A stretch of DNA of 63,758 nucleotides, counting the filler, from Reclinomonas americana ATCC 50394 (lineage: Eukaryota), in the NCBI GenBank assembly GCA_048213135.1. It is 14 parts of 14 records of this genome, joined end to end, with 100 filler letters (N's around TTAATTAATTAA, not from the genome) between each part and the next. Parts side by side here need not be neighbours in the genome. Positions count along the whole stretch, not along the records: positions 11,665 to 15,160 come from AFZH01018091.1; 13 more parts are not named here. One strand, 5' to 3'. Under the pieces are notes generated by a model that was not told the origin of the DNA, did no database searches, and saw only the letters and a program-made list of their open reading frames with translations. Position numbers and translations under genes: made by a program. Of this stretch, positions 10,501-63,463 are shown one piece after another; within the stretch, counting starts at the first letter, position 1, and each line of letters starts with the position of its first letter.

Positions 10501-11564
10501 GCCACTCAGTCGCGACCCGCGACAGGCAAACACCGCAGGCACATGCTTGTGGGAACTGGTGCGTTCTGTGAGGAGAATGTTTCTCATCAATCAATCACCA
10601 CTCATTTTCATGCACGTGACACAGTCGCTGTTCCGTCACCACTTCCATCCCAGTGTGCGCTCGTTTGCCAACACGATGCTGCGCGGTGAGGCCGTGGTGT
10701 ACACGGGTGATCCGATTGAGGACTTTTCCATGCACACCTTCCTCGACAAGTTCATGTGAGTCTTCACTCCCTTGGTCTTCTTCCTTCACCCCGCCGCTCA
10801 CCGCCTTCCTCGCAGCTTCAACCGACCGAAGAAGCGCACGTTCAAGGACCGCAGTGGCAGCATCATGCAGCGACGAGTGAGCACGTACGCTGCGGCGGAG
10901 CCATTGAACTCTTCCAAGTCGAACTTTTCCACACTGCCCGAGTCGGTGGTCCGCGAGAACGAGGTGTTCTTGCACAAGTATCTGTCTCGTCGGGTGCCGG
11001 TGATGTTGCCCGAAGACGACGGAAAGCGCCAACGCGGCGACTTTGACGACGACGACGATGAGGACGATGACGAGGACGCGGAGCTGGACGATGATGAGAT
11101 TGATCGCATTGTGGAGCGCGAGGCCATGGGCACAGATGCCATGCCTGACGACGACGACGATGACGAAGACGAGGTGTGTGCTCGGTGGGAGCGGAGGATT
11201 GATTGCCTTTGTGTCTCATGGTGTGCGATCTGTGCAGGATGATGAATTCGACGAGGACGACGACGAGGACGAGGAAATGGATGCAAAGAAGCGGGCGGTG
11301 CGTTCCAGCCTGCTGCATTTTGTGTGCGCATCTCAATAATCCCCCCGATGTGCAGATGTTCCGAAAGATGGACGGCCTCGGTGACGAGGACGACGAGGAT
11401 GACGAGGAGGATGCAGAGTTGAGTCGACTGCTGCTCGGCGAGGAGGACGACGACGACGAAGATGGCGGCGGCTTCAACACCAAGCTGGAGGGCGACAGCT
11501 CGGACGAGGAGGAAATGGGCAGCGATGACGACGACGACGACGGTGCTGGCGGTGGCAAGAAGCC
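7549..11564 (+). CDS. CEBPZ: CCAAT/enhancer-binding protein zeta / Mak21 / Noc1 (60S biogenesis), 3' end lost in gap
   Basis: SGTLSDRVAAL, KPEGERVLLSMLANKLGDPDRKVAS, LLTGVNRAYPF, DRFYKTLY, RVRAFTKR, RDP, CLWEL, HFHPSV, YTGDPIEDFS..FLDKF and acidic tracts. Confidence 0.9.
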
Positions 11565-12003
11565 NNNNNNNNNNNNNNNNNNNNNNNNNNNNNNNNNNNN
11601 NNNNNNNNTTAATTAATTAANNNNNNNNNNNNNNNNNNNNNNNNNNNNNNNNNNNNNNNNNNNNAGCAGAAGCAAAAGAGAGGGATAATCAGCATCAATG
11701 ACAGAGAGGCGTGGGGGAGAGTTGCCTGCTCTGCCTGTCGTGCTGTTGATGATGAAGGAGAAGATGAAGAGGAGGAGTGCGTGCGTCTCTGTCTCTCCCA
11801 CCATGCCATGGTCTATTACAGGCGCACAGACCTCACTTTTCGGCTGTCCCTCTAACTGCTGGCATGAGGCCACAAGCACTCACTCCAACGCACACACGCA
11901 GGCACACTGCCTGACGCACAGGGCGCGCGTCGAGACATGCCGCACTTCTCATCGCTCTCTCTGCGTCACGAGTCTCTCTCTCTCTTTTTCCACTTTCACT
12001 CAC

Positions 12004-12346: not shown

Positions 12347-14512
12347 ATGGCCTCGGGTTCTTCAGGGCGCAACTATGCACAAGAGATGGACTTTATCGAG
12401 CAAGTCTCGCCCACTCGTTTCGTCGCGCACAAGTTGTCAGATGCGCGTCTGTCCCTTTCTCACTGCTCTCTCTCTCTGCCTTCGATGCAGAGTTCCGCAT
12501 TCGACGCGGCTTTGTGCCGCACATGAAAGTTGCGCACACGCACGCACGCACGCATGCAAGGAAAAACCCTTCCCTCCTCTTGTTTGTGTGTGTCAGAGAG
12601 TGGCCATTTCCAGCTCACGCACGTTTGTCGTAGGTGGAGGGCACGTTTTACATTAACGAGCACCTCAAGCATCTCATGCTCGACGAGCTGTCACAGTACA
12701 GTGAGCACGGTGGAGTCGGTGGATTCCTGCCCTCGGTCAAGCAGATTGCAAATGTCGCCGCGTTGCCTGGCATTGTCGGAGTTTCGCACTGCGGGAGAGA
12801 GACAGAGAGATTCTCAGTCCAGGGTAAGTTGGCATGACTGACATTCTCTCTCCATCTTTATGTAGAAATCGATTGGGTTGCCTGATGTGCATTCCGGGTA
12901 CGGATTTGCGATTGGCAATGTGGCGGCGTTTGATACGGCGGATCCGCACGCAGTTGTCTCGCCCGGCGGTGTCGGCTTCGACATCAACTGTGGTGTGCGA
13001 CTGCTGCGCACGAATCTGAGCGAGGAGGACATTGCGCCGATCAAGGAGGATCTCACGCAGAGCCTGTTTGATCACATTCCGGTCGGTGTCGGCTCGATGG
13101 GTGTGATTCCCACGACCATGAGCGATCTCGAGGAAGTGCTGGTGCGCACGTCAACAGGCTTTTTGCTCTCGTGCGTGTGGCTGAAAGTGGAATGCAGGAA
13201 CTGGGCATGGACTGGTCCATTCGTGAGGGCTACAGTTGGGCCGAGGACAAGGAGCACGCGGAGGAGTACGGCCGCATGCTGAACGCCGATCCGACCAAGG
13301 TCAGCGCGCGTGCCAAGAAGCGCGGATTGCCACAGGTACGCACCGACTGTCGAGTCTCTCTGTGGTATACAGAGTGAGAGACTCACAATCGGCGATCACA
13401 GCTGGGTACGCTGGGCGCCGGCAATCACTACGCCGAGATCCAGATTGTGGACGAGATCTACGACAAGATGGCGGCGGCGACCATGGGTCTGGACCACATT
13501 GGTCAGGTGGTGGTCATGATTCACAGTGGATCGCGTGGACTCGGTCACCAGGTGGCCTCGGACGCGCTGGCTGTGATGGAGCGTGCCATGGCGCGTGATC
13601 GCATCGAAGTGAACGACAAGCAGGTTTGTTTGAAGAAGAGATTGAGAGAGAGAGAGAGACTCATGATGTATGCTGGCAGCTTGCGTGCGCTCGCATCGGC
13701 AGCAAGGAGGGTCAGGACTACTTGAATGGAATGGCGGCGGCCGCCAACTTTGCGTGGGTCAACCGATCCTCGATGACGTTCCTCGCCAGACAAGTTGCGT
13801 TTGCACCCCAGGGTATATTGTTATGAGAGTGCCTTCGCTCACCTTGTCGCCACCGCATCGTGCAGGCATTTGCCAAGGCGTTTGACACCACTCCCGACGA
13901 TCTCGACATGCACGTCATCTACGACGTGTCGCACAACATTGCAAAGATCGAGGAGCATGTTGCGTGCGCCGCATGGCATTCGTTGGTTGTCGTCGCGCAC
14001 TTATTCTTTGCTTCGCAGATGGTGGATGGCAAGATGAAGCAGCTGCTTGTGCACCGCAAGGGCTCGACACGCGCCTTCCCACCGCACCACCCACTCATCC
14101 CGGTCGACTACCAGTTCACGGGTCAGCCTGTGCTGGTACGATTGTCGCCTCTGCGCTCTTTGTTGCTCGTTGCTTACCCCCGAGTGTCGCGCAGGTTGGT
14201 GGCTCCATGGGCACATGCTCGTATGTGCTGACTGGCACCGACAAGGGCATGGAGGAGACTTTCGGCTCCACGTGCCACGGCGCCGGTCGCGCACAGAGCC
14301 GTAACAAGTCGCGCAGAAAGCTGGAGTATCAGGATGTGCTGGATCAGCTGGCAGAGAAGGGCATCTCCATTCGCGTGGCGTCGCCGAAATTGGTGGTGGA
14401 GGAGGCTCCAGAGTCGTACAAGGATGTCACCGAGGTGGTCAACACATGCCACGACGCCGGCATCTCGGCCAAGTGTGTCAAGCTGCGACCAGTGGCCGTG
14501 ATCAAGGGCTAA
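12347..14512 (+). CDS. RTCB: RNA-splicing ligase RtcB (10 exons)
   Basis: Near-complete match to eukaryotic Rtc[92 protein letters not shown] and LRPVAVIKG*. Confidence 0.98.
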
Positions 14513-14666: not shown

Positions 14667-16078
14667 TCACTGCCGATGGCGACCATACTCGCGAATCAAG
14701 TCCTCGAGCGACACACCGCCCTGCAGCTCCGCCGGCAGTGCATCATACATGACTCGTGAAGGCACAAGCGAGCCGCGATTGGAGGCGTCCACCACACGCA
14801 GACCGAGAGACTCGCCGGCCTCCAACTCGCTCAGGTCCTCCCACGAGAACAACAGCGTGTCGGTGGCGCGCTCACTCAACACACCGAAATCAACGATTCG
14901 CACACGATTCGCTGAGTCCATGTGCACATCCACCGTGTCTGCAAACGACGAGCGCGACGGGGTGAGCGTGGGAGTGCACCGGGCAGTGACAAACGGACGC
15001 AACAGTCGGCCAGCGGAAACACGCCACGAACGACAGTCTCAAAAAACTCCTCAATCGCCTGCTGCGTCTGCGCCTGCGTGTCACTCTCGCCGAGGAACGG
15101 GTAGCAGGTGGATGTGTCGCGCTGCGAGATGCCTGGCGCGCCACAATGAGAGGCAGGGAGNNNNNNNNNNNNNNNNNNNNNNNNNNNNNNNNNNNNNNNN
15201 NNNNTTAATTAATTAANNNNNNNNNNNNNNNNNNNNNNNNNNNNNNNNNNNNNNNNNNNNCGGTGGGGGAAGAGGGGTGGTCGCCACTCACCAACAATTC
15301 TGCGATCCCGCACAAAGCACCGAAACTCGCCCGCCGCATTCACATCGCCGCGGAACTTTTGCAAGCACAGATGCACCTGCTCCCGTCGCGCCTCCGCACA
15401 CTCGGCCTCCGGTTCACAGAACGCATACCTACAAAAAAACAGTGAGGAAAAACACGCACTTGTCTCACAAAATGCAGCATATCGCAACGGTGCCGCCAGC
15501 TCATCCGCCACTGTCGTCGACGCCTTCAACGCCATGTACACCTCCGCCACCGTGAAGCACTGCAGCACGTTGCCGGGAAACATCCACCGCACATCCTGCA
15601 CTCACCGCCCGTGTGAGCACCACACACAGCTCAATTACAAGACATCGCTGGTGAGCCTCACCTCCGGTGCCGACCAGTCCAACTTGGGAAACACCGACGG
15701 GCCCACCTCACGAATCGCCTGCTCAATCGCCTGCTCCACCTCCGGGAAGCTAATCACAGCATCGGCCTCGTCCTCATGATCACCAGCAGCCTGCTCACAC
15801 ACACACACACGCACTAAGAACACACTCTATTCTCAGGAGACCGACTCACGTACATCATCAACATCGCGTGTCAAGTGTCGCGGAATGCGAAGGCCTGTGT
15901 CTTCCTCCTCCTCCTCGTCTCCAGCTGCAGCTGCTGTCGACAACAGGTATTGTGTGACAAAGGCCGGTGACAGAGGAATGATGCGCACGTCGTCGCGAGT
16001 CCACACGTGTCGGCGTGCGTCAAAGAGTGGGAACCACGCGGGAAACGCACATGCGTCGAGCTCCTCGCGCGTGGTCAT
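14667..16078 (-). CDS. CDC123: Cell division cycle protein 123 (D123, ATP-grasp), spans a gap
   Basis: CAFPAWFPLF, IIPLSPAF, FPKLDWSAPED, EVYMALKAS, EFRCFVR, ISQR and LLFSWEDL. Confidence 0.9.
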
Positions 16079-16149: not shown

Positions 16150-20876
<4,727 letters not shown>

Positions 20877-22396: not shown

Positions 22397-23275
22397 TTTT
22401 GGCAACGCGCTCTTCTTCTCACACACACTTTTTTTTTTCTCATCGCAACTCCCGCGCGCGCAAAGAGAAACGAAACAATGTACACTTCTTCTCTCTCAGA
22501 CAAACATGCACACACACACGAGGGGGGAGAGAGAGAGCAGCGCACCATGATTGCTTGCCCCACATTTTTTCGAAAAAAGTGTGTGTGGTCGCGTGAGATC
22601 AATAAACACGTGTGGATCGAAAGCGGGTATGAGAGGTTTGATTGATTGTCCCTCGCGTTTTNNNNNNNNNNNNNNNNNNNNNNNNNNNNNNNNNNNNNNN
22701 NNNNNTTAATTAATTAANNNNNNNNNNNNNNNNNNNNNNNNNNNNNNNNNNNNNNNNNNNNAAACTGAACAAACTCTGCGTGTGTGTGTGTGTGTGTGTG
22801 TGTAGAAAAGAGTCAGTCTCATAATCGTCGTCGGAGTTTGTGTAGGAGGTAGCGGAGAGGGGAAGGAGGGAAAGGGCGATTGGCTGGTGTGTGAAAGGGG
22901 GGGAGACGGGGAGAACGGGGGAGAGTGGGCATGCACATGACATGCACAGCAACAGCTGAATGCGCAGAGGGAGGATGGTGCAAGCGCGGAGATTCCTCTC
23001 TTGCTTGGGGGGCAGGAATGGGAGAGTGTGAGTGTGGCTGTGTGTGCGGGAGACGCAACAGCTCCGCGAGCGCGTGTGGATCGGTCGATGCAGGACATGG
23101 ATGAGGTCGGATTCTTCGACGTCACAGCATTCTTCATTCACGCCATCCCCATCTCAAAGAGACAGAGAAACAAAAAGGAAAGAACACATTGCGGCGCAGA
23201 AACAAGGTTCACAGGAAAAAGGGGGGAAAAAAGTCTGTGAAGAAAAACCGGGGAAAAGACGTCTCTCGAGACCGC

Positions 23276-25889: not shown

Positions 25890-26777
25890 GACTGCGGGGA
25901 AGAGGCAGTTATAACCGTGAGTCGCATTGTCGGGCGTGACGCGCGGTGCGTGGCAGTGGGTGGAGAGAGGGGGGAGCTAGTGCGAGGCGCAGAGAGTGGG
26001 AAAAGATGCGCGGAGGGCGGGGGGAGAGGGCGCGCGTGTGCGTGTGCGTGTCGGTGTGATCAACATGACCCGATGTTGGGAAATGTTGACGCGGGCGCGC
26101 CCACACACGCACACACACGCGTGTGTGGGAGAGGAGAGCGAGGAAGATGTGGAAGAGTGGAAAGAGAGGGGAGAGAGTTTCGCATCGTGTCTTTTTTCCC
26201 GCTTGATGTCGTCATGAGTGTGCGAGTGACGAGGGAGAGAGAGAAACCACGAAAAGAAACCGTGGCCCCGTGGAGTTTACGCGTATACACACACAGAGAG
26301 AGAGGTACGTACTCTTGTAGAGTGGCACGCCGGGTGGGCGGAAAACGCCGAGCGTCTTGAGAATGCCGCCAAGCATGAGTATATGCACGCGCACAAGGGC
26401 ACAAAAAATATCGTAAGACAGAAGCCGGACGGATTCTCGGAGTTGAGCGGTGGATTCCTCGGCGATGCGCTCGCTCGCTACGTACAGCTGACGTGGGACG
26501 GTGCTTGCCTAATGTTGATTGATTGCGGAGAGCATGCACAAGATCAACGCCCCGTCGCCTTTATAGATGGTCATCGATGGGTGGAAGAAAAGGAAAAAAT
26601 GCGTGACCGGTATCGACGCATCACACACACTCTCTTCCCTCCCCCGCGACACGCAAAAAGCAACAACAGACACACTANNNNNNNNNNNNNNNNNNNNNNN
26701 NNNNNNNNNNNNNNNNNNNNNTTAATTAATTAANNNNNNNNNNNNNNNNNNNNNNNNNNNNNNNNNNNNNNNNNNNN

Positions 26778-28045
26778 GTGAGTTGTGTGCACTGCCATGC
26801 AAAACCTGACAAGTTTGACGACAAACCAGTCATGTTCTCGCCCAACTCCTTGGCCACTCGGCGCAGGTTCTTCAGTGAGATCTTGCCCGTGTCGTCTGCA
26901 GCGACGAGTGAGCACAGGCACACAAAGAGACAGCTGCGCAAACAGCAGATGCAGACCGTCGTCAAACAAGCGGAACGCCTTCAGCAGCTCCTCCCGCGAG
27001 TCCTTCTCCGACATCTTCGCCGTCATCATCTATCATGCACACAGGGGCAGCACAGGTGAGCCTCTGTGCACGTTGAGTCGTGAGCTGGCAAACATGCACA
27101 CCTCGAGGAACTCCTGGAAGTCGATCTGTTGGTTGCCGTCCTTGTCGGCATCTGACATCATCTTCTTGATCTCCTCCTTTGATGGCTCGAAGCCCAGTGC
27201 TCGCATGGCCACCTTCAACTCCTTGGCGTCGATTTGACCTGCAACACACAAACAACAAAGGAGTCAGGACATGTTGCACCTTCACCACCGCCCACACACA
27301 CACGCGCGCAAGACACACACGTGCAACACCGCACAATGCAACAAGTGAAGAGAGAGCGAGAAGGAGAGACAGCGCGCGCATGTGCATTCGCGAGAGAAAC
27401 AAGACGGGACATGGCAAGCACGAGAGAGAGGCGAGATGGCGCGCGCGCAACTCGTGCACTCAAACACACACGCACACACGCACACATACACCCAACGCAC
27501 CCGAGCCATCAGTGTCGAACAGATCGAATGCCTGTGAAGAAGAAGAAGAAAGAAAAGAGAGAGAGTCGCCAGAGAGATGAGTTTCAACGGGCTGCTCAAG
27601 GCAAGCGGGTAAATCGCAATCGTGACGCGACCTCGCGGATCTCGTGCTTCTGCTCCTCCGTGAGCTCCATCCGTCCGCGACCACGTGCGCGGGATGCACC
27701 AGCAGCAGGGCGACGATGAGAGGCCTGTGTGTGTGACACAAAGTGAGCGAGCTGGCTCTCTCCTATCGTTCAGCATGCGTGTGCGTATGCAAAGACGACT
27801 GTGTGTGCAGTATCTCTGTGCGTGTGTGCGGGTTGCATGCGGCGATGTGCGTGTGTGCGCTTGCGAGAGAAAAACTGCAACACGACGCACACGCACGCGC
27901 GCCGCGCAGCAATGTCCATGGCGCCAACGCGCGCACACAAAACGCACGCAGACGCACGCGCAGGAGTTACAAAGAGTGACACGCAGGAGAGAAGGGGCAG
28001 GGAGCGAACAGTGACTGCGACAGTTTGCGGCAGGGCACTCACCAT
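26778..28045 (-). CDS. CETN: Centrin (EF-hand), 3' end lost in gap
   Basis: [87 protein letters not shown]. The first coding exon is the ATG alone. Confidence 0.96.
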
Positions 28046-31890: not shown

Positions 31891-32326
31891 CACACACACA
31901 CGCATTCCACAAGCACATGTCTCCACAAACACACACTCACACGCACACAGCCCGAGAAACACACGGAACACTCACGCACACGTCTCTCTTTCTCTCACAT
32001 ACTCCCTCTCCATGTCTCATTTGTTTATCTCTCCCCCTCCCCCTCCCTCCCTTCCCCTCCCTTTNNNNNNNNNNNNNNNNNNNNNNNNNNNNNNNNNNNN
32101 NNNNNNNNTTAATTAATTAANNNNNNNNNNNNNNNNNNNNNNNNNNNNNNNNNNNNNNNNNNNNAGCTTCCTCTCCCTCTCAGCACCCTCTTCACGAGAC
32201 TACTCTGACAGAGGCACCGAGAACGCGCACACGGTCGCTTGTTTCAGAGAGTGACAGATTAGATGCAGTAGCGCGCTCGCGGGCGGCAAACTCACCTCCA
32301 CTCACTCATCTCACACGCTCTCGAAC

Positions 32327-35300
32327 ATGATGGCCGCGGTGGCCGCGGGCGGAGGCGGAGGCACAGCCACAACGCGTGCACCACCGACCGCGCTCTCACT
32401 CTCTCTTCGTTGCGCTCACTGCACTGTAACACACACATACGCCCATGCTGACTTCGGACTTTAGCCTCGTCGTCGGTGCTGACACAGAGCAACGCCACAC
32501 GGTACTATGTGCACTTTGGTGATGCCATTTCACTGGGCGAGTCGGCCTCCTCAGTGGCGTCGCTGATGGAGGGCGGAACATCGTCATCGGATGCTGTGGC
32601 CGCAGCGGCAGCGGCAGCAGCAGCAGCGGCCGCCGCTGCAGCCTCGTCGGCGATCAACGTTGGTGGTCGGTTCTTGTGCGAACGAGAGGAGATGGTGTGG
32701 GCCACTCAATGCGTCGTCATGATGATCAGGGGGTTGCTGCTGCTGCTGACTGCAGTCAATCATGGCAGGTGTGCATCGAGGACATGCAGCACGAGTCGTT
32801 TGAGCCGCTGCCGAGTGGCTTCTATGGCAACGTGTGGGAGATTGTGGACTCGCATCTCGATCTGCAGAGCACGTTGCGTGATGGAGGAAGCGCGTGGAGT
32901 CCTGCGAGTGTTCACTGACAGTCGATGCAGTGCGAACCCGGAGGACTTTGCAGCGTTTCGTCTCACATATGGCACACCGTTCCAGCTGCGGCACAAGCTG
33001 TCGAAAAAGTACTTGTCGCTGCGACGTGATGAGGTTCGTGTAGTCGTCGCCGACCGGCCAACAGCGAGTGTCACTGATCTCGCTTTGATGGTGTGAGCAG
33101 TTTGCGACCGGATCGGCCTCGTTGCGTGTGTCGCTAGTCGACGCCAGTGAGTCGCATCACGGGAGTGCCTTGTGGACATTTGTGCCGGGAACACGCGCTC
33201 GCAGTCGAGGCGGTCCAGTGTTTGTGCGCGACAGCTTGCTGATCATGAACACCGTTGCGCACACCATTCTCCCCCCGACCGTGGTGTGTATATATGTGTG
33301 TTATGCTGATCCACGTGTGGAGCACAGGGTACCAAGCTGTACCTGAATGCCGTGTCAGATCTGCCTGATGTGCGCATGTCGACGCTGATCTTTATGAGGA
33401 GGTGTGCGCTCATGTGAATGTGTGACTCTCTCTCTCTTACCGCTTACGATGCTACAGCTACCACACGGTGGTAAGCGGACCCGCGCCCAATACTCTCTGG
33501 ACGGTCCATCGATTTGCTCTTCGGCACACAATCCCGGATGCTCTTGAGGCATGTGTGTCGGTGTTGCTCTCCACGTAATTTTTTCGTCACACTGAGATGT
33601 GATGCTCCCCTTCTCTCCACCAGTACGGTCAGGCCTTTGCGCTGTACTTTACCGAAGACAATCGGTGCCTTCGAGCGACGCAGTACCGGTTGCAGATGGA
33701 CGACCTGCAGGTTGTGTATTGTTGTACATGTCTGGTAATCAATAGCAGTGGAAGACTGATGAAGCCGAGTGCACTGCAGGCCACGGATCTCTTTCTCAAC
33801 TCGGCTCTAACCGTAAAAGTCAATTCAGAGTCGATTCTGGACTGGTGGAGTTTCGAGCCGCTGCAGACACGCACCGGTGGTGTCATTCGGTGGTGCGCTT
33901 AGCCGACCACGTTCCTTCCGCGTTCTGGTGTTGATTCGCTCCGCCTGCAGGAACCAACAAGTGCGAATTCGACACGTGCTCTCCGGGCGCTATCTCGTGC
34001 TGATCAACAATGCCACTGACGACGGTGCGCCTTGCTGCAAAGTGAATGGAGTGGATGTGTGTGTGTCTCACTTGCGATGTTGCAGAGCCGGATGCCGTCG
34101 ACCTGGTGTTGGTCAATCTGCCAGAAGTGGACCAGGAGACACTTGGTGCGGTTGGTGTGCTTTTTCTGTGCTGGCCAACGTGTAGCCTCACACCGTGATG
34201 CAGATCTCATGGGCACATCCGATCGTCACGAGGCTGTGTGGATTCTTCGCCCGACCGGCGTCGTTGATGATCCCACGGCGCCTGTGTTGAAGGACTCGTT
34301 CTTTCTCGTGCAGGTGTGATGCGTGTGTGTGTTGTTCCTTCTTGCTTTGTTGCTCACATGCATCACCACGAACAGCACATGGATACCAAGTTGTTCCTGC
34401 GAGTGCTCACGGAGAGCGAAGGTGCCGCGGGGGTTCTTTCTGTGCGTGTGTGTCCGTCGCGTCGGCTGACTCTCCTGGTGCAGTGCGTCTGGCGGCACAA
34501 CGACAGGCAGACGAGGCTGCCAATGAGCTTGCCGAGTACGAGGACGAGTGGGAGTTTACAGTGAACGAGGCACGAGGTCAGAGAGCGGCTACTGCTGCGG
34601 CTGCGGCTGCTGTGCCAGGCGTGTCGCCGACTCCCGCAGATGCCGTCGCCGCCGGCAAGGTTTGTGCGGTCGCGTGTTCATGCACTTGTCGGCGTGTTTT
34701 GTTGTCTGTCTCACATCATGTTCTCGCATGCTTGTAGGCTGGTCGTCCACTCGGTGTGCGTAAGACGTCGACGTTGCACGATGCATGGAACGTGTCTGTC
34801 ATTCCACAGAGTCTGCTGGCGCACTACTATTCCATGGCCGAACGGTGTGTGTGACTGGTGATGCGCCTGGCGATGCCAGTTGAGCTGCTCACATCACGTA
34901 TCGCACAGGTTCGATCGTCTCGGCGTCATCATCAAGCACCTCACGCAAGATGCGAACTCGGCTGGAGGCTTCCGCATTGTAGAGATGGCCGTCATTATCA
35001 CTGGTAGCGACTGGCTGATTCCGCTTGCCGATGAAGTTGCGTTTCCTGCTTCCGTTCATGCAAGGACGAACAACTGACACGATGTGGTGCCAGGCTGACG
35101 CGCTGGCCGATTTCTTCAAGAGCCTCGGGCGACGAGGTCTCAAGAGTTGCGTCACACGTTGCGCTTGCATTGTTTCTTTCCGTGTTCGCGGTGTAACACG
35201 TGTGTGTGTATGCGCGCGCATTGCAGCCTTCCAGGACTTGCAGGCGACGGCAGTCGATGTGGCCGGCATTCAGTATGTTTTCAACATTCTGATCACGCTG

Positions 35301-38300
35301 AAGCTGACCATCTCCATCCAGAGTGCAGCCGAGGCTGTTGCGTCTCCGAGGCATGCAACGCCCTCGTCTTCACCTCTCATTCTAATGGTGTTCACGAGCA
35401 GGCACGCGACTATCGCATCGAGTTGGAGGATTTCCACAAGATGGTGGCCAACTCCGTGGATGCCGCGAGCGCGCTGCTGCGCGTTGTCCGTGCTGTGTGC
35501 AAGAAAAACGATGTCGCATCAGCGGTTCGCTCTGTTTGCACTCTTTTGTATTTTGGCACGAAGCTCACGTGGGCTGTGTGTGCACAGACGGTGTACAAGA
35601 ACCACCAGCTGCAGTTGTTTGAGCTCGTCAGCCGTTCCCTCGTCTCCAACGCGGCCGTCAGTACATTTGCTCTGTTGTATGCCAGCTCACACACTGTGTG
35701 CCGTGGTGTTAAGCAGGATCATGTTGCGTCACGCAAGCCGGGTGCACTTGCGCATCAACAAACACAATTCTGATTGTGCTGCACAGATTCACAAGTGGCT
35801 GGAGATGGCCTCCGAGAAACCACAGTTGGTGTCTGACTGTTTCCGTCTGGTGACTTTCATTTGCGGCGAGCCAGTCACTGCGCAGTCGTCGGCCACGCTG
35901 GATAGCGGTACGAAGCTTTGTGTTGATCGCTTCTTTGCAGACACTGACTAACGCAACGCTATTTTAGACGTCATTGAGCCGGAGCTGTATACCGTCGGTC
36001 GTGTGCAGCGTCGCTTGCTGAAGCGCAATCAAGCCATTGCTGGTGACATTCTCTTTTCACGATTCCCCGAGTTGCTGCAGAAATATGTGGTGTCGTTTGG
36101 CGACCGTGGTGGTGCGGCATTGCGTATGATCCCTCTATCCCGTATCTATTTAGTCGCTAACGCGGATAACGTGCGCAGATACTCCGGAACTGGTCGTCAG
36201 CATGTGGGAGGGGCGACAGGCGCGCGAACTACCGCTCCGATTTTTCACGAATTCGCAGTTTGTCAATGCGGCGTTGAAGCGGCGTACTCGCAAGTCGGGC
36301 CCTGCCGGTGCGGCGGGTGCCGACTTTTCGCCAGCCTTTGACGCCGCACAAGACATGGGCAGTCGACACATTGCCTTCCTAGATTTGGCTGTGGTTGAGT
36401 TCATCATGCGAAACAATAGTCCGTGCCCGCTTCGCTGTGCACTCACGCATGTGTATGTTTCCGCAGGTGCTTTGCTTGGAGCTGCAGCGAAACAACGAGG
36501 ACGAGCTGCGCAAGTTGTTCGAATTGCCGCATCTGCTGCATGCCATGGAGTTGCCACTCGACTCGACCATCCGAGCCAAGGTTTGACAAGTGTGGATCCG
36601 TAGCACAACGCACATGCAATGACACGGCCTTTGCAGATCATGGACATTATCACCAACATTTACGTCGAAACCGCTGACGTTGGTGTGTCGGCATTCGACA
36701 TCGAGACAGTCAAGGTCATTCACGATCGGCGACCAAGGTCATTTACGCCGCATGTGATTGTGCCCTTCCTTGTCACAAGAGAACTGACCTGTTTCGAGCA
36801 GACACATTCCACCGCTGTACAAGGACGAGTGCGAGCGGCTGATTGTCTTCACCACTCAATACTTGGAGCAGTTTGCTCAGCACATGTTGCGTGGAGAGAA
36901 ATGGAGTACCGACTCTTCCGAATGTTCATCTAATTGCTCTTCCGTGCATCAGTCAAGAGCGAGATCGACTGGAGCGCGCGGCAGAGCCGGCGGATCTGCC
37001 ACGTCGGTCGGCGATCGAGGCACCCTCGCCTGTGCGTCAAGCACAGCCGTCTGCTGCTGCAGGGTCTGCAGCGCCCGCTGCTTCTGGTGGTGTGGAAGGC
37101 GCTCGCGTGCCAACCACGCCGGAGCTGATTCTCGTCCAAGAGGTTGGCTGGCGACGAATGGAGATGTGTGACAGTATTTCGACTTGCTGACTTGCTTTGC
37201 GGCAGACCATTGAGCAACTGCCTTGCGTGCTGTCGGGTATTGAGGCATTGCACGGTCTGTTCCGGTACCAGCGTGGCTTTCTGCTCACGTCGCCGGATGT
37301 CATTACGCGCATTCTGGACAGCCTCTGCACGATTGTCGCGTGGAAGTTAAGTGCAGTGCCTATCGGATAGTCCAAGCTGCCGTGTGGTGGATTTTGGCTT
37401 ACGCTTTGCCTTGCTGTGCAGAGTGGCTCAGGTGCCGGCGTTGGAAGACGCGCCGAAAGGCAGCCCGGCGGCGCTGCTGAGTCGCATCAAGCGGCACATT
37501 TTTGATTTTATCCAGCTTATCATGGACATTCGCATGGATCTGGAAGTGCACAGCATCTTTATGAGGTACGCGGCCTCTTGATTGCAGTGTGCCGCGGCGT
37601 GTTTCTCACCACACCATCGTCCCCGTCACAGATTCCAGTCCAATATTCTGGAGTACCCCTCGTTGCCGCGGTTGCACCACTCGGAGGCATCTGAGTTTTT
37701 CGGTCTCGGCGGCTCGTGGACGGCGAGCAATCGAGAGGTCATTGAGTTCAGTCCGGACCACGAACTTCGCAAGCGCGCCATCTTGGCATCGTTCACCATG
37801 GTAACGCGGATTTATTGCGCAACGTGTTTGCCCACAGGCACTCACAGAGTGTGTGAATTCGTGCACAGCGCATGCACGGCCATCACACGCTCAACGAGAT
37901 TCGCAACGTGTTCATTCTGGTGGGTGACGACTCCAGTTCGCTGAAGCAGCGCTTGGCCACCATTGTGTCGGAGTTGTGGAGTATTGGCCTCAGTGAGAAG
38001 ACGCTGACGGACGGACTCAACAAGGTCTGTGCGAGGTGTCGTGCGTTCGTCGTGCTCCTCGATTGACGTGTCTCTTTTTTTGCGCGACAGGCATACCGAC
38101 TGCTGTCTGAGCTCGTCCGAGATCTAATTGTGTCGGCAGATGCGGAGGCCGACCAAGGCGATGCCATCAACTTGGACGGCGTGCCGAGCCGCCGCACGCA
38201 GCAGCTGATGCGTGAGATTCAGGTTGCGTATGCAGACTGTGGTTGTACTGTGTTTGTTTTTCTCAGGCATCCTCACTGACACACCGCCTCACGCGTAGGC

Positions 38301-41300
38301 CCATCGAGCCATTTTCCGCATCCTCTCGTTCCCGTACGAGAAGAAGTTCTTCAACGTGTACCGGCTTGCTTTCCACGCTCTGCGCCTCTTTGTGCGACAG
38401 AACTCCACCAACGCCGAGGCCATCCGCCCATTCTTCCCCATCATGATCGGCCACATGGCGCGCAATCTCAAGGTAGGGTGTCCGTTGATTGCAGTGATGA
38501 AACCCTGATTGCTTACACGGGTGCGAATGCCGCGACACAGGCTGCGCCGGTGTTTGTCGAAATGTTCTCCACCAGCCTCAACTCGGTGACGCAACTCAAG
38601 GACTCGGAAATCTTGCGCTTCTGCCGCCTGATCCTCGAGAACGAGCGTCAGCCGCGCTACGCCAAGCTGTTGAAGTTGCGATCAGTGTGGTTACGCGCGT
38701 TGCAGTCATGTGCGAGGTCGCGCATTCATCACGAGTGGATGCACAGGACGATTTGTGTCGTGAACGATCGCCCCGTGCCGCACAACCAGTCGGTGATTTT
38801 CGACTTTCTCATCAAGAATCAGAAGCGAACATTCTGCTTGTACCAGACACCCGAAGGTAACGCTGCGAGAGATGCACATTGAGAATGCATGAATGCCCTC
38901 ACTCGCACCATGCTGTTTGTGACTTGCAGAGCGAGCAATCCGTGATCAGCAGCTGCATGCGTCGCCTGGCGAGTCCGAGAGCGTGCTGTACTATCACTTC
39001 TCCTTTGTGGAGCTGCTGGCTGCGACAGCAGTCGGCTCCAACACGGAAATTGAGGTGCATTGCTCGACTTTGTGGTNNNNNNNNNNNNNNNNNNNNNNNN
39101 NNNNNNNNNNNNNNNNNNNNTTAATTAATTAANNNNNNNNNNNNNNNNNNNNNNNNNNNNNNNNNNNNNNNNNNNNCATGCATGACATGAACCCCGACGA
39201 AGTCGGTGGCGATGTGGATCAGTTTCACGGTGCGTTTTGTGCAACAGAGCGATACGCACACAATGGTGTCATGCATTGACTGGTGACGCTGCAGGATTGC
39301 TGGAGCACGAGGACGATGAGCAGCGACTGGCAGATGGACTGGATTTGTTGCAAGAGATGCTGGCCGAGAGCATGAATCAGTCGACGCCGCAGATCGAAGC
39401 GTGCGTCTTTATCTCGTATCTGTCTCCCTTTCCTCCCTTGTCTGCTCATGTTGTCTCTGCAGCGATGCAAGGCTGGTGTGGTCGCTCTACATCAAAGTGC
39501 TTCGGCGGCACTGGGAAGACGAACTCTTCGACGAGCGCATCGAGGGCGTGCGAGTGATTGCCCACATGAATGACACCACGCTGAAGGTTGCGAATGAGTC
39601 TCACGCGTGTATGTGTGCAGCACGACGGATGTACTCATCACGCCGCTTGTTGCATTTGTAGAATGTGATTGAGCAAGCGGATCTGGAGCGCAATGGCAAC
39701 CACGTTCCGCTGACCATGTTCATTCTCGATCTGATGAAGTATCTGTTGGTCGGCGACTACCGTCAGCAGTTGCGCTCGCCGGCGACCTCCTTCGAGGCAT
39801 TCGAGTCGGCCCAGAATGGCATGTTTGGCAGCGGCACATTCGCCGCGACCACTGCTCCGCTGTCGCCCACGTCGCTGGCCGGCGGTGACGCTCACCTGGG
39901 TGGCGACGGTCAGCCGCCTGTGCAGGTTGGCGCGGCTGCCGCCGCCGCAGCAGAGGAAGAAGTGGTGCCGGGGTAAGTGGGGTGGAGCATCGGCGCAAGT
40001 GTTTTTGTGTGCGTGTGTCTCGCTTGCTCACCGCCTTTCTTGTGCTTCCAGTGACGATGACATGCCGACGGTGTACGTCCAGTGGCAGACACGTTTGGAT
40101 CAGTTGGGCGGCACGCGAACTGTCATCTCTCTCCTGTCGACCACCAACCGAGCCGTGTTCCAGCGCGTTGCGTCGTTGTTGTGCTGTAGTCCTCCCATCT
40201 TCGATGTGCGCTGACTGTGTGTGTGTGTGTGGTGACTGCAGGCTGTCGAGACGCTTACGCTGCTGCTCCGTGGTGGCAACAAGAGCGTGCAGGCCACGGT
40301 GTTGCGCACGATTGAGGAGGCTGGCAACGAGGACGATGCTGGTTGGTGGTGGTGTCTGCTGCCGTGCACTTCAAACATTGATGCACACGGCTGATTGATT
40401 GACTCGTGCAGATACCAAGTCCGCCGATGGTGGCCGGCTCAGTTTGTTGCACGGCTTGCGAGAAATGATTCGGCGCACCGTCGACGAGAGCACTCGTCGA
40501 CCGTGGTGGCTGGAGATGCGCGAACGTTGCGAGGCTTGAGTCGTCAGAGTGCGAACATGCGCCTGCAGACTGATTCTTTCGTGCAGGGTACCATCGCGTC
40601 AAGTTTGTGCGTGCATTGCGAGAAGAAGAGCAGCGCGAAAGTGCCGCGCGACAGTCGGAGAGCACTGTGAACCTGCGAGTGCGTCAACTGGAAGTGTCGA
40701 CGTCCGAGTTTGAGACGCAGGAGGCGATTTTGAGAGTTTCGTCTCGTTCCCCTGAATTCGATGACACACAGTACACTCACAGGCGGTATGCAGTTTATCA
40801 AGGAGCTCTGCGAGGGACACAACCTGCAGAGTCAGGATGTGCTGCGTGAGCAGACGCACACCCGTATCAACATTCTACTCGCACTGTGCGAGTATCTGGA
40901 AACGCTGGTGCCTTCTGAACTGCCTGGTAAGTTCCTGGTTGTTCGTCACTCCTACTGTTACTGCAGTCGCCCTGGATGGCTGATGTTTCGTTGACAGATC
41001 TGAAAGACTATGGTTTGCTCGGTGAAAGTGGAACCGACCTGGCATTGTTGCGTGCACCAATTTCTCTGTCTCTCTCTTCTCCTCCATCTACCGTGGCTTA
41101 ACTTTATTACCAACGACAGACTGGTAGCCGACCGTATTGAGCGTCTGGGAGTTGCCTCGATCAAAGGTATCGAAACCATCTTCCAGCCCGTCTCTGTCCT
41201 CTTGGACACACTCACGGAGACCATCCAGGGTGTGTGCCCACGTGTTCCATTCGTTGACTTGCTTGTTTGTTACTGACTTGTGCATGTCGCACTCCCTCCT

Positions 41301-44093
41301 TTGCAGGACCATGCCTCGGCAACCAGACAGAGTTCCTCAGCGGCAGCGGGTTGCAGGCAGCCAAGAACCTCTTGCGGCTGACATGTTGAGTCAGTCCCAC
41401 GAGCTTGTGCGCATGCTTGAGCATGTCTGTGTCACTTACCACTGTGGTATCAGTCACCTTGGAGACGTTGTCGCGCACGGATGTGTGGCACAACCGCTTC
41501 TTTGAGATCTCGTATCTGTGGCGTACCACCACCGCCGAGCGTGTCGTATTCCAAAAGTGTTGCAAACTGCTGCTGGCCACACTTGAGGGTTGGTGCTGCT
41601 TCTTTGCTCGCTACCCTCCTCCTCCTCCGCACACGTCAGTGACATTGTCAACCTCCCTCGCCAGGACCCAACATGCTGCAGCATATCCGTGCCATCCGCA
41701 CCGGTGGTTTCATGGAAGTGCTGCGGTACAAGCTGGAGTCGTATGCTGGTCTCGTCGTGCGCACGCGTGGCCGTTCACGCTCCCTTGCTGACGAAATCAT
41801 GCAAGAGGTGTGTGTCAGTGTGCCTCGCCAAAAGCCAATGCACTCCTCACCGCCCCACTCGCACTCGCAGAGTATGATCTTCTACGTGCTGTTTTCGTAC
41901 CTCCTTGTCGACTTCCCGCCCGACAAGCAGGAGCGACACAAGAGTGATATTCAACTGCGCTCTGAGTTTGACCGGCGTCTGGGTCGCATTGAGATTTTGC
42001 GGTGCGTGAGTCTCTGCGCGTCTCTCTCGCCTCATTTCCTGTCACTTAGCATCTGCACGTTCAGTGACGACCGCGTGTTGCCGGTGATTTTCGCCAAGGA
42101 CACACTGAGCGAGGAGCTGCGCAAGGTCGATCGGACTGAGTTGTTGCAGTTACATCGATCGTCTCTCTGTGGTGCTTTGTGTGCTGCGTTTCCGACTGAC
42201 TTGGGGGAACGCGGCGCGACAGATCGGTAACCAAGGCCAAGGACTCGGAGCGGCTGCAGAGCTTCCACGCCGGTATCGAGATGACGTATGACAAGATGAC
42301 CATTCGACGGGAGCGCAAGCAGACGCGCTCGTACAAACTCTTGTCGCGCTACGTTGATGTGGGGTGCGTTCAGTGAGAGCCGTCGTGTTGCCTCGCGTTG
42401 CACTGCTAACACTTGTCCTCAGGCTCGTGCGCATCATCGGCAATCTGTTGTGCATACTGGTCAATATTCTCATGATCGCGTGGTCGGAGGTGCATCTCTC
42501 TCTCTTTCTCCATCGTCGAGCATCATCTCGCTTCTTCTCAACCTTCTTCTGTCTCTGTAGGTGGACGATGACACCAAGCCGCCATTATCTATTGCCATTT
42601 ACACATTCGGCATCATGCTCTTCCTGGCCCACGTGGCCGTCTTAGCCTCGTTCTGGACACTCGAGTTTCGCGTGTTCGGTGACAGTCTATACAAAGCACG
42701 CATCAGGCGTCTGCGTCGTCAGCGTGAGGACCGCAACTGGAATCCGAGCCCGAGTCGTGCGCGGGTGCGTCACATGCTTTCACGTGTTTGCTCTTGCCGC
42801 CCGTCCCGTAATCTTAACCGTTCGGTGCAGTGGATGCGAATCGTGGCTCATGTACAAAATCCACTACTTGTTTACATGTTTATTCTTGGTTTATGCTCGC
42901 TGTTGGGCCTCGTGCACACTTTTTATTGGTGAGCCGCCACCCCTTCTACATGGATAGAATTCTAGTACCCTCACTTCTTCTCCCTCTTCTTTCCTTTGCA
43001 GGTTTGCGGTGCCACTGGCCGACCTGGTCATCCAGTCGCAAGTGTTGGTCGGCGTGTTGCAGAGTATCAACAAGCCGCGCACGTCGTTCTTCCTCACGTT
43101 CCTGCTGCTGCTGCTTATCGTGTACGGATACGCGATTGTCGGCTACGTGTTCCTGTCGGACGAGATCTTTGCAGATCCAACAATGCGCACGCCGGGCACC
43201 GAGGTGTGCACGTCGGTTGGCCAATGCTGGCTGGCGCTGGTGGGACAAATCTCCAGTGGTGGCGACTTTTTGCGGCAGTCTCTGTCAGTCACCAGTCCAC
43301 TGCAAGTCCTCTACCAGCTCACCTTCTTCTTTGCGATTCTCGTCATTATCCTCAACATCCTCTTCGGTATCATTGTGTTGCGTCACCGGCATCACTTGAC
43401 TCGTTCTTGCCAGCGAGTGTGTGCTTTTTTGCTGACTTTGTTGCTTGCAGCGATACGTTCTCCGAGCTGCGTACGACTCGCGAGAGCATTCAGCGAGAAC
43501 TGAAGACGCGCTGTCTGGTGTGCGGTCTCGACAATGCGACTTTCGATCGCGAAGGCAACGGCTTCCAGCAGCATTTGTTCCGCGAACACCTGTTGTGGGA
43601 CTACGTGCATTACTACGCGCGTGTGATGGAGGCCAAGGCGCGAGGCGAGGACATTGACTTTGACGGCTACGAGTTGTACCTGTACGGTCGCTTCTTTGCC
43701 TCGGATATCGGTTTCTATCCGCTCAGTAGGTCGTACGCTCTGGAGCTGCGTGGGCGTGTGAACGAGGAGGACAACCGCGATGCAGTGGTGCGTCTGTTTT
43801 TCGTGTGTTGTTTCAGTCTCCGCTGTTTTTTGAGTTGACCACGCTCTCTGCAGGACCCGGCAACCGTGGTCAAAACGCTCACCTCCACTCTCGACTCGAT
43901 GGCCGAGCACCTCGAGGTCCTCGAGCAAGAGGTCCGCGCCAAGGAGCGGGTCATTGTGTCGTTGCATGGCCGAGTCGAGCAGCTGAATGCCTTGCTGCGA
44001 GAGCAAACCTCGGCCGTCGTCAATGCACAACTGCAGCGCCTACAACAGAATGCACGTCCAGGTGCCGGTGGAGTGTCGCCGGCGGCCGTGTGA
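32327..44093 (+). CDS. ITPR: Inositol 1,4,5-trisphosphate receptor / RyR-family Ca2+ release channel (about 50 exons, spans a gap)
   Basis: YVHFGDAISL, LTYGTPFQLRHKLSKKYL, VRIRHVLSGRYL (MIR), RRTQQLMRE, LLRGGNKSVQ, ILRFIKELCEGHNLQSQDVLREQ, TLTETIQGPCLGNQ, six TM helices, LNILFGIIVDTFSELR and CLVCGL..H..EH. Confidence 0.93.
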
Positions 44094-44157
44094 CCGTCGT
44101 CTTGACCAAGAGAAGGAGAATGAAATTTATTCCGCTTTGTTTATCATCATCATTATC

Positions 44158-60899: not shown

Positions 60900-61033
60900 N
60901 NNNNNNNNNNNNNNNNNNNNNNNNNNNNNNNNNNNNNNNNNNNTTAATTAATTAANNNNNNNNNNNNNNNNNNNNNNNNNNNNNNNNNNNNNNNNNNNNG
61001 TCGCTTCCACCCCCCCCCCCCCCCCGACCCGGC

Positions 61034-62409: not shown

Positions 62410-63463
62410 NNNNNNNNNNNNNNNNNNNNNNNNNNNNNNNNNNNNNNNNNNNNTTAATTAATTAANNNNNNNNNNNNNNNNNNNNNNNNNNNNNNNNNNN
62501 NNNNNNNNNCAACACATAAAGACAAGGGGAGCATGAGCACAAGCAGCCGAGAGACACAGAAGCGTGCGTGGGCTGCCCTGGCCAGCCATGACATGCACAT
62601 GACCATGGCACACACACACACAGAGAGAGAAGACACAACCGGCCACTATTATTCGCTCTCTCTCCCCGCTCTGCTACTGCCGAGTCGTGCAACGAGTTGC
62701 GTGCAGTGCAGCGTGAGTGCGGCAAGCGCGTGCGTGCGCGATGGTCTGCGGCATGTGCGACATGCACACTCTCACTCCAGCTCCACAGACGCACACAGGC
62801 ACACACACACATGCACACATACACACACAGACACAGAGAGGTGCACTGGGGATATAGTCATGCGCTGAGCTCTTCAGCGTGGCTGTGCGTGTATCTGTGT
62901 GCACGACAAGGTACGCAACACTTGGCCTTGTTTTCGATCTTTGCCGAGTAGCGGACCATTGGAACGAATACCCTGCGTCGCACACTGTCAGCCTTCTTCA
63001 GAAAACACACACAGAGAGTGGCGGAGGGGCGTGTGAGGCCGCACCGAGGGTGAAAAACGCGATCAGTACTTAGGTTGATTCGATCAGACCGTGAAACTGC
63101 ATCCATTCATAAACAGCGCCACTTTTGCGGAGGTGAGATCACGCAGCTGGAGACGTGTGATAGGCGCGCTCTACGGTCGCAGACAGTCAGCAGTGGCCAC
63201 TCTGTGTCTCCACGTGTGCGTGTGTGTCGGTGTGGGGGGCGTGCGCGTGGTGCTGTTGTGCATCATGTGCATGGCAATGGACGACGCCGCCCCCCACCAC
63301 CCCCTGTGTGTGTGCGCACTGAGACGGTGTGGAGTGACAGAGAGGGGGGGAGAGACGCACACAGGCAGTGACAGGCACTTTGTGTGTGTTTGTCATGATG
63401 ATGATGATTGACAGAGAGACTCACTTCACTCTCTCTTGTGCCACAGGCTTCATCTTCGTAATC

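Follow-up and report, generated by a model that had tools for sequence, protein, structure and literature searches.

The introns carried by a 63,758-nucleotide stretch of DNA from Reclinomonas americana ATCC 50394 (assembly GCA_048213135.1; the whole stretch is called the window) use two donor motifs that lie one base out of step with each other. Both are cleaved before GT, and the last base of the upstream exon is linked to the motif that follows. Class A donors (GTGNGT) account for about 55–60% of introns and mostly follow an exon ending in G, while class B donors (GTTKCGT) account for roughly 35–45% and show no such preference. The reading favored here, held at a probability of about 0.55, is that a +1-shifted register of U1 pairing, known from rare human sites, is used by some 40% of the introns in this DNA. 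The evidence consists of the window sequence, protein homologues and published papers.

Last exon base and donor class

The clearest case is the gene for the RNA-splicing ligase RtcB. Removal of nine GT-AG introns leaves an open reading frame (ORF) of 1533 nt that encodes a 510-amino-acid protein. Full-length homologues were gathered with one exon as query, and 11 of these were aligned to the spliced model. Identity ranged from 74 to 84%, the best named match was the jakobid Seculamonas, and all nine junctions were gapless in all 11 homologues. The coding region and its introns, each supported by the ORF and the homologues, are as follows; the exon base before each donor is given last.

12347..14512, plus strand: RtcB coding region, 10 exons, 510 amino acids (spliced ORF and 11 homologues)
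12417..12490, plus strand: intron 1, 74 nt, phase 1, class B, GTTTCGT after C
12529..12633, plus strand: intron 2, 105 nt, phase 0, class B, GTTGCGC after A
12781..12865, plus strand: intron 3, 85 nt, phase 0, class B, GTTTCGC after A
13142..13197, plus strand: intron 4, 56 nt, phase 0, class A, GTGCGCA after G
13336..13401, plus strand: intron 5, 66 nt, phase 0, class A, GTACGCA after G
13624..13679, plus strand: intron 6, 56 nt, phase 0, class A, GTTTGTT after G
13794..13865, plus strand: intron 7, 72 nt, phase 0, class B, GTTGCGT after A
13959..14018, plus strand: intron 8, 60 nt, phase 0, class B, GTTGCGT after T
14136..14194, plus strand: intron 9, 59 nt, phase 0, class A, GTACGAT after G

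A preliminary description of this DNA had listed five RtcB introns after a non-G exon base, all with shifted donors (GTTTCG after C, GTTGCG after A, GTTTCG after A, GTTGCG after A and GTTGCG after T), and four after G with ordinary donors (GTGCGC, GTACGC, GTTTGT and GTACGA). The aligned gene bears out both lists base for base, and the four donors after G all have G at +5. By itself, this 5/4 split gives a Fisher p of 0.008 for nine introns. Intron 6 carries T at +3 yet has G at +5, which places it in the canonical register and in the control group of GTT donors considered below.

Introns elsewhere in the window were predicted with a dynamic-programming gene finder whose score combines codon usage with an acceptor matrix, a prior on length and a donor term, the last of which reads positions +3 to +8 only and never an exon base. 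Without the donor term the gene finder placed four of the nine RtcB donors wrongly and was too inaccurate for use, and with a loose length prior it fused exons into long introns, such as the long "introns" of a transportin-like gene that concealed exons. An unsupervised two-component expectation-maximization mixture, fitted to +3 to +8 of the predicted donors, resolved into GTG[CTA]GT and GTT[GT]CGT. Once this mixture was combined with a tight length prior, all nine RtcB introns were recovered, and 177 introns were predicted overall. A more conservative set of 158 introns comprises those in the 14 gene models scoring above 20.

The same trend had been proposed for the window as a whole, and it holds there. 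Among the 158 predicted introns, donors with G at +5 followed a G in 57 of 76 cases, compared with 10 of 66 for donors with G at +6 but not at +5 (p = 3e-13); the other 16 donors fit neither definition, and seven of them follow G. Across all 177 predictions, class A donors followed G in 71 cases and another base in 26, class B donors in 9 and 64, respectively, with seven introns unclassified (p = 8e-16). Exclusion of RtcB (149 introns) left 59 and 23 for class A and 9 and 52 for class B (p = 4e-12), and the strictest filter (57 introns) gave 32 and 4 versus 4 and 15 (p = 8e-7). The association between last exon base and donor class is thus confirmed and highly non-random. As a simple rule, in which G predicts class A and any other base predicts class B, it is correct for 120 of the 152 classified introns, and it is a strong trend rather than a law. 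The classes are not confined to separate genes, for both are present in 12 of the 14 gene models; class B makes up 73 of the 177 predicted introns and five of the nine in RtcB.

Counts made independently of any gene model point the same way. The heptamer GTTKCGT occurs 65 times in the window, as opposed to 24.4 +/- 5.3 times in dinucleotide shuffles, and none of 100 shuffles reached 65. Its strand tracks blocks of gene orientation: within gene spans it was found 40 times on the sense strand and three times on the antisense strand, and only two of the 40 sense copies are preceded by G. When all 65 matches are set against the predictions, 39 are predicted donors at that exact G, 12 are unused sense copies, four are antisense and 10 lie outside the models.

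It is conceivable that a gene-modelling artefact, or chance in a small sample, produced the pattern. The introns outside RtcB are predictions, the early model without a donor term misplaced four RtcB donors, and exons did lie hidden in the long "introns" of the transportin-like gene. However, RtcB is verified by homology and the final model recovers it in full, the donor term is blind to exon bases, the association survives every filter as well as the exclusion of RtcB, and the model-free heptamer counts concur. An artefact is therefore given next to no weight.

One donor motif in two registers

The relationship between the classes becomes apparent when their base profiles are compared, position by position, for 79 class A and 66 class B donors; donors made of (GT)n repeats were left out of these counts.

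Position -1: class A, G 73%; class B, A 32, C 27, T 27 and G 14%
Position +3: class A, G 75%; class B, T 86%
Position +4: class A, C 48, T 25 and A 22%; class B, G 79%
Position +5: class A, G 86%; class B, C 79%
Position +6: class A, T 68%; class B, G 92%
Position +7: class A, without conservation; class B, T 85%

Compared without a shift, the classes differ at each column from +3 to +7 (p < 1e-8 for each). The conserved intronic positions of class B lie one base farther downstream, with G at +6 and T at +7 standing where class A has G at +5 and T at +6. The summed Jensen–Shannon divergence between the classes falls to 1.37 bits when class B is shifted by +1, versus 2.76 bits at 0, 4.1 at -1 and 4.68 at +2, and about 1 bit of the remaining 1.37 reflects the unavoidable G/T mismatch at the second position of the motif. 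Columns on the exon side, which played no part in defining the classes, behave likewise, diverging by 0.056 bits at a shift of +1 versus 0.326 at 0. In keeping with this, position -1 of class B differs from -1 of class A (p = 5e-12) and resembles -2 of class A (p = 0.27). At the positions they share under the shift, class B is the tighter of the two (C 79% vs. 48%, G 92% vs. 86% and T 85% vs. 68%). The preliminary description had proposed a unit of fixed spacing, the hexamer G-K-T-N-N-G, read in two registers. The two registers stand, in that a shift by one base superposes the classes, but the hexamer was too short, and the motif is better given as the heptamer G-K-T-G-C-G-T.

The preference for G at -1 follows the register of the downstream G-T and not the T at +3 or the strength of the donor. 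Perfect GTGCGT donors follow G in 14 of 18 cases, whereas perfect GTTGCGT donors do so in one of 30 (p = 8e-8). Donors beginning with GTT can be divided by register: G precedes all 10 of those with G at +5 but 5 of the 53 with G at +6 (p = 2e-8). Within class A, a perfect GTG[ACT]GT does nothing to relax the preference, which is found in 22 of 32 perfect and 36 of 47 imperfect donors (p = 0.45).

These comparisons bear directly on another explanation, an ordinary trade-off between exon and intron within a single register (AG//GU vs. //GURAG), with the shift as a by-product of a GC-rich consensus. An anticorrelation of exon-side and intron-side strength has been described across diverse eukaryotes (Parker et al. 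2022, bioRxiv 10.1101/2022.04.05.487178), and an association of exon-end G with G at +5 is already known (PMC8283771). Indeed, that the last exon bases can predict the intronic type, as they do here, was known from the two classes described by Parker et al. 2022. Those classes, as presented there, share one register and differ in strength, whereas in R. americana the same consensus has moved by one base. A trade-off would not account for a class B consensus that is displaced rather than merely stronger, for the lack of any such balance within class A, or for the 10 GTT donors with G at +5, each of which follows G. It is regarded as very unlikely.

Cleavage before GT in both classes, as the preliminary description had it, is upheld by the RtcB reading frame with its nine gapless junctions and by a frame test that disregards the GT rule and looks for the cleavage offset at which the reading frames on either side agree. 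Of 40 GTTKCGT heptamers, 29 were undecidable by this test; 10 of the 11 decidable ones gave offset 0, and for control motifs all three offsets were about equally frequent. Three more genes have gapless junctions that support the cleavage position as well.

Apart from the donor, the two classes are much alike. Of 60 class A introns 41 have a CTNAY branch motif, as do 32 of the 39 examined in class B, C occupies position -3 of the acceptor in 57 of 60 and 35 of 39, respectively, the median lengths are 66 and 74 nt, and the base compositions are similar. This is a single U2-type intron population with two donor registers. U12-type introns resemble class B in having a tight intronic donor and no exon consensus. 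Their donor motif is RTATCCTT. The class B donor is not of this kind, and its introns, unlike U12-type introns, share branch motif, acceptor and length with class A. A minor-spliceosome class is ruled out by the CTNAY branch (32 of 39) and the CAG acceptor, both as in class A.

A further way to account for class B would be a family of mobile, introner-like introns, or a cohort of recent gains, that inherited a donor together with an insertion-site preference. The uniform 7-nt start and the missing exon consensus would suit such an origin. Nevertheless, an all-against-all blastn of 101 introns gave a longest match between class B introns of 18 nt, of low complexity, and 16 of the 54 matches between class B introns consisted of the donor itself only; length, base composition, branch and acceptor are also those of class A. 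A mobile origin thus seems barely credible.

A proposed shifted U1 register and its alternatives

Pairing with U1 is the most likely way in which one motif could be read in two registers; U1 as the reader, and a single U1 for both classes, is what we infer. At class A donors (G/GUGNGU, with the slash at the exon–intron boundary), the cut would fall after the first G of the heptamer, which the exon supplies. At class B donors (H/GUUGCGU), the heptamer G-K-U-G-C-G-U would begin at the intron's own +1G, leaving the exon end without a preference for G. In such a duplex, +1G would lie opposite the U1 C that normally pairs with -1G, +2U would be a tolerated mismatch, +3U would pair with the U1 A that normally pairs with +2U, and +6G and +7U would occupy the places of +5G and +6U. 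Later steps of the spliceosome would then fix cleavage at GU. The greater tightness of class B at the shared positions would fit compensation, because an internal mismatch must be offset.

Among human introns, shifted-register sites form a rare set of some tens. Class B differs from that set in its abundance and in having a tight consensus of its own, GUUGCGU, and its U1 pairing is putative. At atypical human 5′ splice sites the +1 register has been established experimentally (Roca & Krainer 2009, according to Tan et al. 2016, PMC4856993), and an old yeast study cited by title in the latter paper reports that U1 pairing alone does not fix the cleavage site. As these sources describe them, the human sites match the reading proposed for class B in several respects, being cleaved at GU with U1 contacts displaced by one position, and having +1G in the slot of the exon's -1G and a conserved G at +6 rather than +5.

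Duplex folding bears on this arrangement. Nearest-neighbour duplexes were calculated with the canonical U1 5′ end, from which the organism's own U1 sequence may differ, and 61 of the 79 class A donors folded in the canonical register. The canonical register was optimal for only 2 of the 66 class B donors; the shifted register was the commonest single one (21), followed by a bulge (8), and 35 fell into other or mixed arrangements. With a G5 variant of U1, which has G opposite +4 as reported for Mastigamoeba (Roy & Bowser 2022 preprint), 33 of the 66 class B donors were shifted, 10 bulged and none canonical. The shifted register is accordingly the best supported of the registers considered.

The effect of such a register on exon ends was addressed separately. 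The preliminary description had suggested that class B frees exon ends from coding constraint, and this is true in part: the G preference is lost, but coding does not force a non-G end, and A is enriched. A synonymous G-ending codon was at hand for 19 of the 26 phase-0 class B introns with a non-G end, and therefore the coding sequence did not dictate the choice. The phase-0 class B exon ends examined include those at 12528, 12780, 13793, 35035, 35145, 38674 and 40735. G stands at 9 of 66 class B exon ends, fewer than the 21.7 expected by codon position (p = 6e-4) but not below a small "before GTT" null of 12.1; the background frequency of G before sense-strand GTT is 11%. Rarity of GGTT as the source of this depletion was ruled out by the GTT donors with G at +5, all 10 of which follow G. 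A was found at 11 of 35 phase-0 class B exon ends, as opposed to 9% at third codon positions (p = 2e-4), an excess that reaches only p = 0.047 against the small "before GTT" null. On these numbers the exon end in class B is more than merely unconstrained, and the excess of A is a suggestive detail. An A at this position would suit pairing to the U that ordinarily lies opposite -2.

Several observations weigh against the shifted register. If -1 of class B is read like -2 of class A, A should be enriched at both, and it is found in excess at the former alone; at -2 of class A it stands at 30%, about the baseline for codon position 2 and not clearly enriched. Mean pairing of class B with canonical U1 is weak in every register (-1.95 kcal/mol, vs. 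-5.5 for class A), so that canonical U1 alone poorly explains GUUGCGU, the most conserved donor, and the shifted register is optimal for just the 21 class B donors noted above. The strongly conserved C at +5 of class B has no partner in canonical U1. An Rfam scan of the window gave no match, U1 included. The -1 rule is broken by 32 of the 152 classified introns. Lastly, the data come from a single 64-kb window of 14 concatenated contigs, the introns outside RtcB are our own predictions with partial homology support, and every junction is drawn from ORFs, homology and gene models.

The weak pairing of class B is in line with the idea of two readers, in which a standard U1 would read class A, and a dedicated U1 variant (e.g., one with A for C opposite +2U, which would pair perfectly with GUUGCGU) or some other factor would read class B. 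The offset would then reflect a variant snRNA and not slippage of a single U1. Precedents are given in the Roy & Bowser 2022 preprint: lineage-specific U1 5′ ends are reported to have co-evolved with donors in Entamoeba (donor GUUUGU, U1 ACAAAC) and Mastigamoeba (donor GUGCGC, U1 ACGUAC), and Physarum is said to carry standard and modified U1 variants. That class B pairs so poorly with canonical U1, and is still the most conserved donor, also speaks for a reader of its own. On the other hand, its greater tightness at the shared positions is easier to explain by compensation for a mismatch than by a dedicated snRNA with a perfect match, and branch, acceptor and length are common to both classes, which are intermingled in most gene models. 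Two readers are considered unlikely but stay a serious rival, the most probable of the alternatives to a single shifted U1.

A bulged nucleotide could also produce a displaced intronic half. Canonical pairing would be kept at -1, +1 and +2, the U at +2 or +3 would bulge, and +4 to +7 would pair as +3 to +6 normally do; an absent -1G would be tolerated because the intronic match is strong. The intronic half of this alignment is the same as under a shift, bulge registers have been established at human sites (Tan et al. 2016, PMC4856993), and folding chooses a bulge for a minority of class B donors with either U1. The human bulge and asymmetric-loop registers, as that paper presents them, share with class B the displacement of downstream positions by one nucleotide and the common U at +3, but they keep canonical pairing at -1, +1 and +2, whereas class B loses the -1G preference. 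Under a bulge, -1 would still face the same C and G should stay favored there, yet its share drops from 73% in class A to 14% in class B, and among perfect motifs G precedes just one of 30 in class B versus 14 of 18 in class A. Moreover, a perfect intronic match does not relax the -1G preference in class A, and therefore the compensation that a bulge would call for is absent where it can be examined. A bulge appears improbable.

The +1-shifted register may be extended into a fuller proposal, put forward tentatively and at somewhat less than even odds. One U1, possibly with G opposite +4, would read G-K-U-G-C-G-U at both classes, and GU alone would set cleavage. This would amount to a constitutive second donor code in which about 40% of introns sit one base out of the universal frame and exon ends are released from the -1G rule, in what would be, as far as the literature searched shows, the first genome with the shifted register as a major class. 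The Roy & Bowser 2022 preprint provides a context for the G opposite +4, in that the U1 pairing region can change within a lineage, and donors with C at +4 occur together with a standard U1 in Thecamonas and Micromonas. Several GC-rich protists and algae treated there have donors with C at +4 or of the form GTGCGY, like class A, but each genome has one consensus in the text consulted, with no mention of a second, shifted class, whereas two classes are found here. A search of open-access papers and preprints yielded no genome with a shifted-register donor as a major class with its own consensus.

If a shifted register is indeed in use, recognition and choice of cleavage site at 5′ splice sites would be separable by one nucleotide genome-wide, well beyond a few human oddities. 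The thousands of paired canonical and shifted donors in each cell would also constitute a natural test system for what sets cleavage after U1 leaves (U6, U5 or Prp8), and for whether U6 follows the shift. The exon ends of class B bear on exon evolution, namely on how far the -1G rule constrains the ends of exons. There are practical consequences, too: gene finders with a single donor matrix will miscall many introns of this organism (the first models here misplaced four of the nine RtcB donors, an error that was gone once the donor term had two classes), and splice-site logos would merge both classes into one weak consensus.

Exceptions, other genes and the sample

Nine exceptions to the -1 rule were named in the preliminary description, at 10756, 17126, 39401, 53357 and 54812 (ordinary donors after non-G) and at 36394, 38223, 39587 and 44218 (shifted donors after G). 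The sequences given for them are all present, and eight of the nine are donors in conservative gene models, 17126 being predicted only under the most permissive setting. Those that could be compared with homologues are listed here, followed by three predicted class B introns that conform to the rule.

38223..38298, plus strand: exception, class B donor GTTGCGTA after G; gapless against homologue P0237, 6 of 16 residues identical
39587..39661, plus strand: exception, class B donor GTTGCGAA after G; gapless, weak homology
10756..10815, plus strand: exception, class A donor GTGAGTCT after T, CEBPZ/Noc1 gene; gapless in 51 of 57 spanning homologues
53357..53424, plus strand: exception, class A donor GTGCGTCC after T, transportin-like gene; gapless in 1 of 1 spanning homologue
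54812..54878, plus strand: exception, class A donor GTGAGTCT after T, transportin-like gene; gapless in 3 of 4 homologues
43377..43450, plus strand: predicted class B intron, GTTGCGTC after T, IP3R/RyR-like channel gene; gapless, 15 of 16 residues identical to homologue P0263
54425..54496, plus strand: predicted class B intron, GTTGCGTC after C, transportin-like gene; gapless in 3 of 3 spanning homologues
54603..54673, plus strand: predicted class B intron, GTTGCGTT after C, transportin-like gene; gapless in 3 of 3 spanning homologues

The exon upstream of the donor at 54812 was located by tblastn. For most junctions outside RtcB, including the majority in the IP3R-like gene and in the transportin-like one, homology is too remote to settle where the boundaries lie.

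The transportin-like gene (window 52373-55378, plus strand) starts at 52373 by tblastn to P0124, upstream of the model start; its codon bias is weaker than that of its neighbours, and with six of its nine class A donors after a non-G base it is the worst gene for the rule. The IP3R/RyR-like channel gene (window 34400-44100, plus strand) is very intron-rich, with about 40 predicted introns. Matches along the greater part of an IP3R-like exon did not exceed 44% identity, the one exception being a 48% match to the first 61 residues, and the C-terminal channel exon is 28-48% identical to channel proteins of 2000-3300 amino acids. Across the bulk of the CEBPZ/Noc1 exon identity did not rise above 40%; a single 43% match spanned 57% of the exon, and the best matches were animals. 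No close relative was found in the protein collections when RtcB, CEBPZ/Noc1 and IP3R-like exons were compared, and the only match to the CEBPZ exon in a metagenome scan, L001, was 29 residues long and uninformative. A tRNA scan of the window gave no match.

A small group of donors departs from both consensus motifs. Seven predicted donors of the form GTG[GA][CT]G[TC] (GTGGCGT, GTGACGT and GTGGTGT) were assigned to class B by the mixture model, three of them after an exon-final G. All have G at +3 combined with G-T at +6/+7, and they may be a small third group of bulged type or mispredictions.

37087, 44421 and 59895, plus strand; 56946, 55856, 46838 and 31525, minus strand: GTG[GA][CT]G[TC] donors (gene-model predictions)

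The window as a whole is eukaryotic DNA of about 57% G+C, packed with short GT-AG introns. Its gene set, with RtcB, a centrin, a Rab32-like and an IP3R-like gene, suggests a non-fungal protist able to form flagella. It contains 13 spacers of 100 bases, each consisting of 44 N, TTAATTAATTAA and 44 N, the middle part being a linker with stops in all frames. The window is therefore made of 14 contigs joined artificially, with genes broken at the joins.

2849-2948, 11565-11664, 15161-15260, 22662-22761, 26678-26777, 32065-32164, 39077-39176: spacers (positions of the window)
48708-48807, 50929-51028, 55379-55478, 58096-58195, 60900-60999, 62410-62509: remaining spacers

The IP3R/RyR-like gene appears to run across the linker at 39077-39176, and the contig order there therefore looks real. 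Microsatellites of the (GT)n and (CT)n/(GA)n types are frequent within introns (e.g., at 16856, 24634, 41230, 56627 and 60262). Several predicted donors lie at the beginning of a GTGTGTGT run, which leaves their precise boundary in doubt, and these are the donors dropped from the profile counts. Further genes in the window include a centrin on the minus strand (27033-27670) and a Rab32-like gene (51415-52130).

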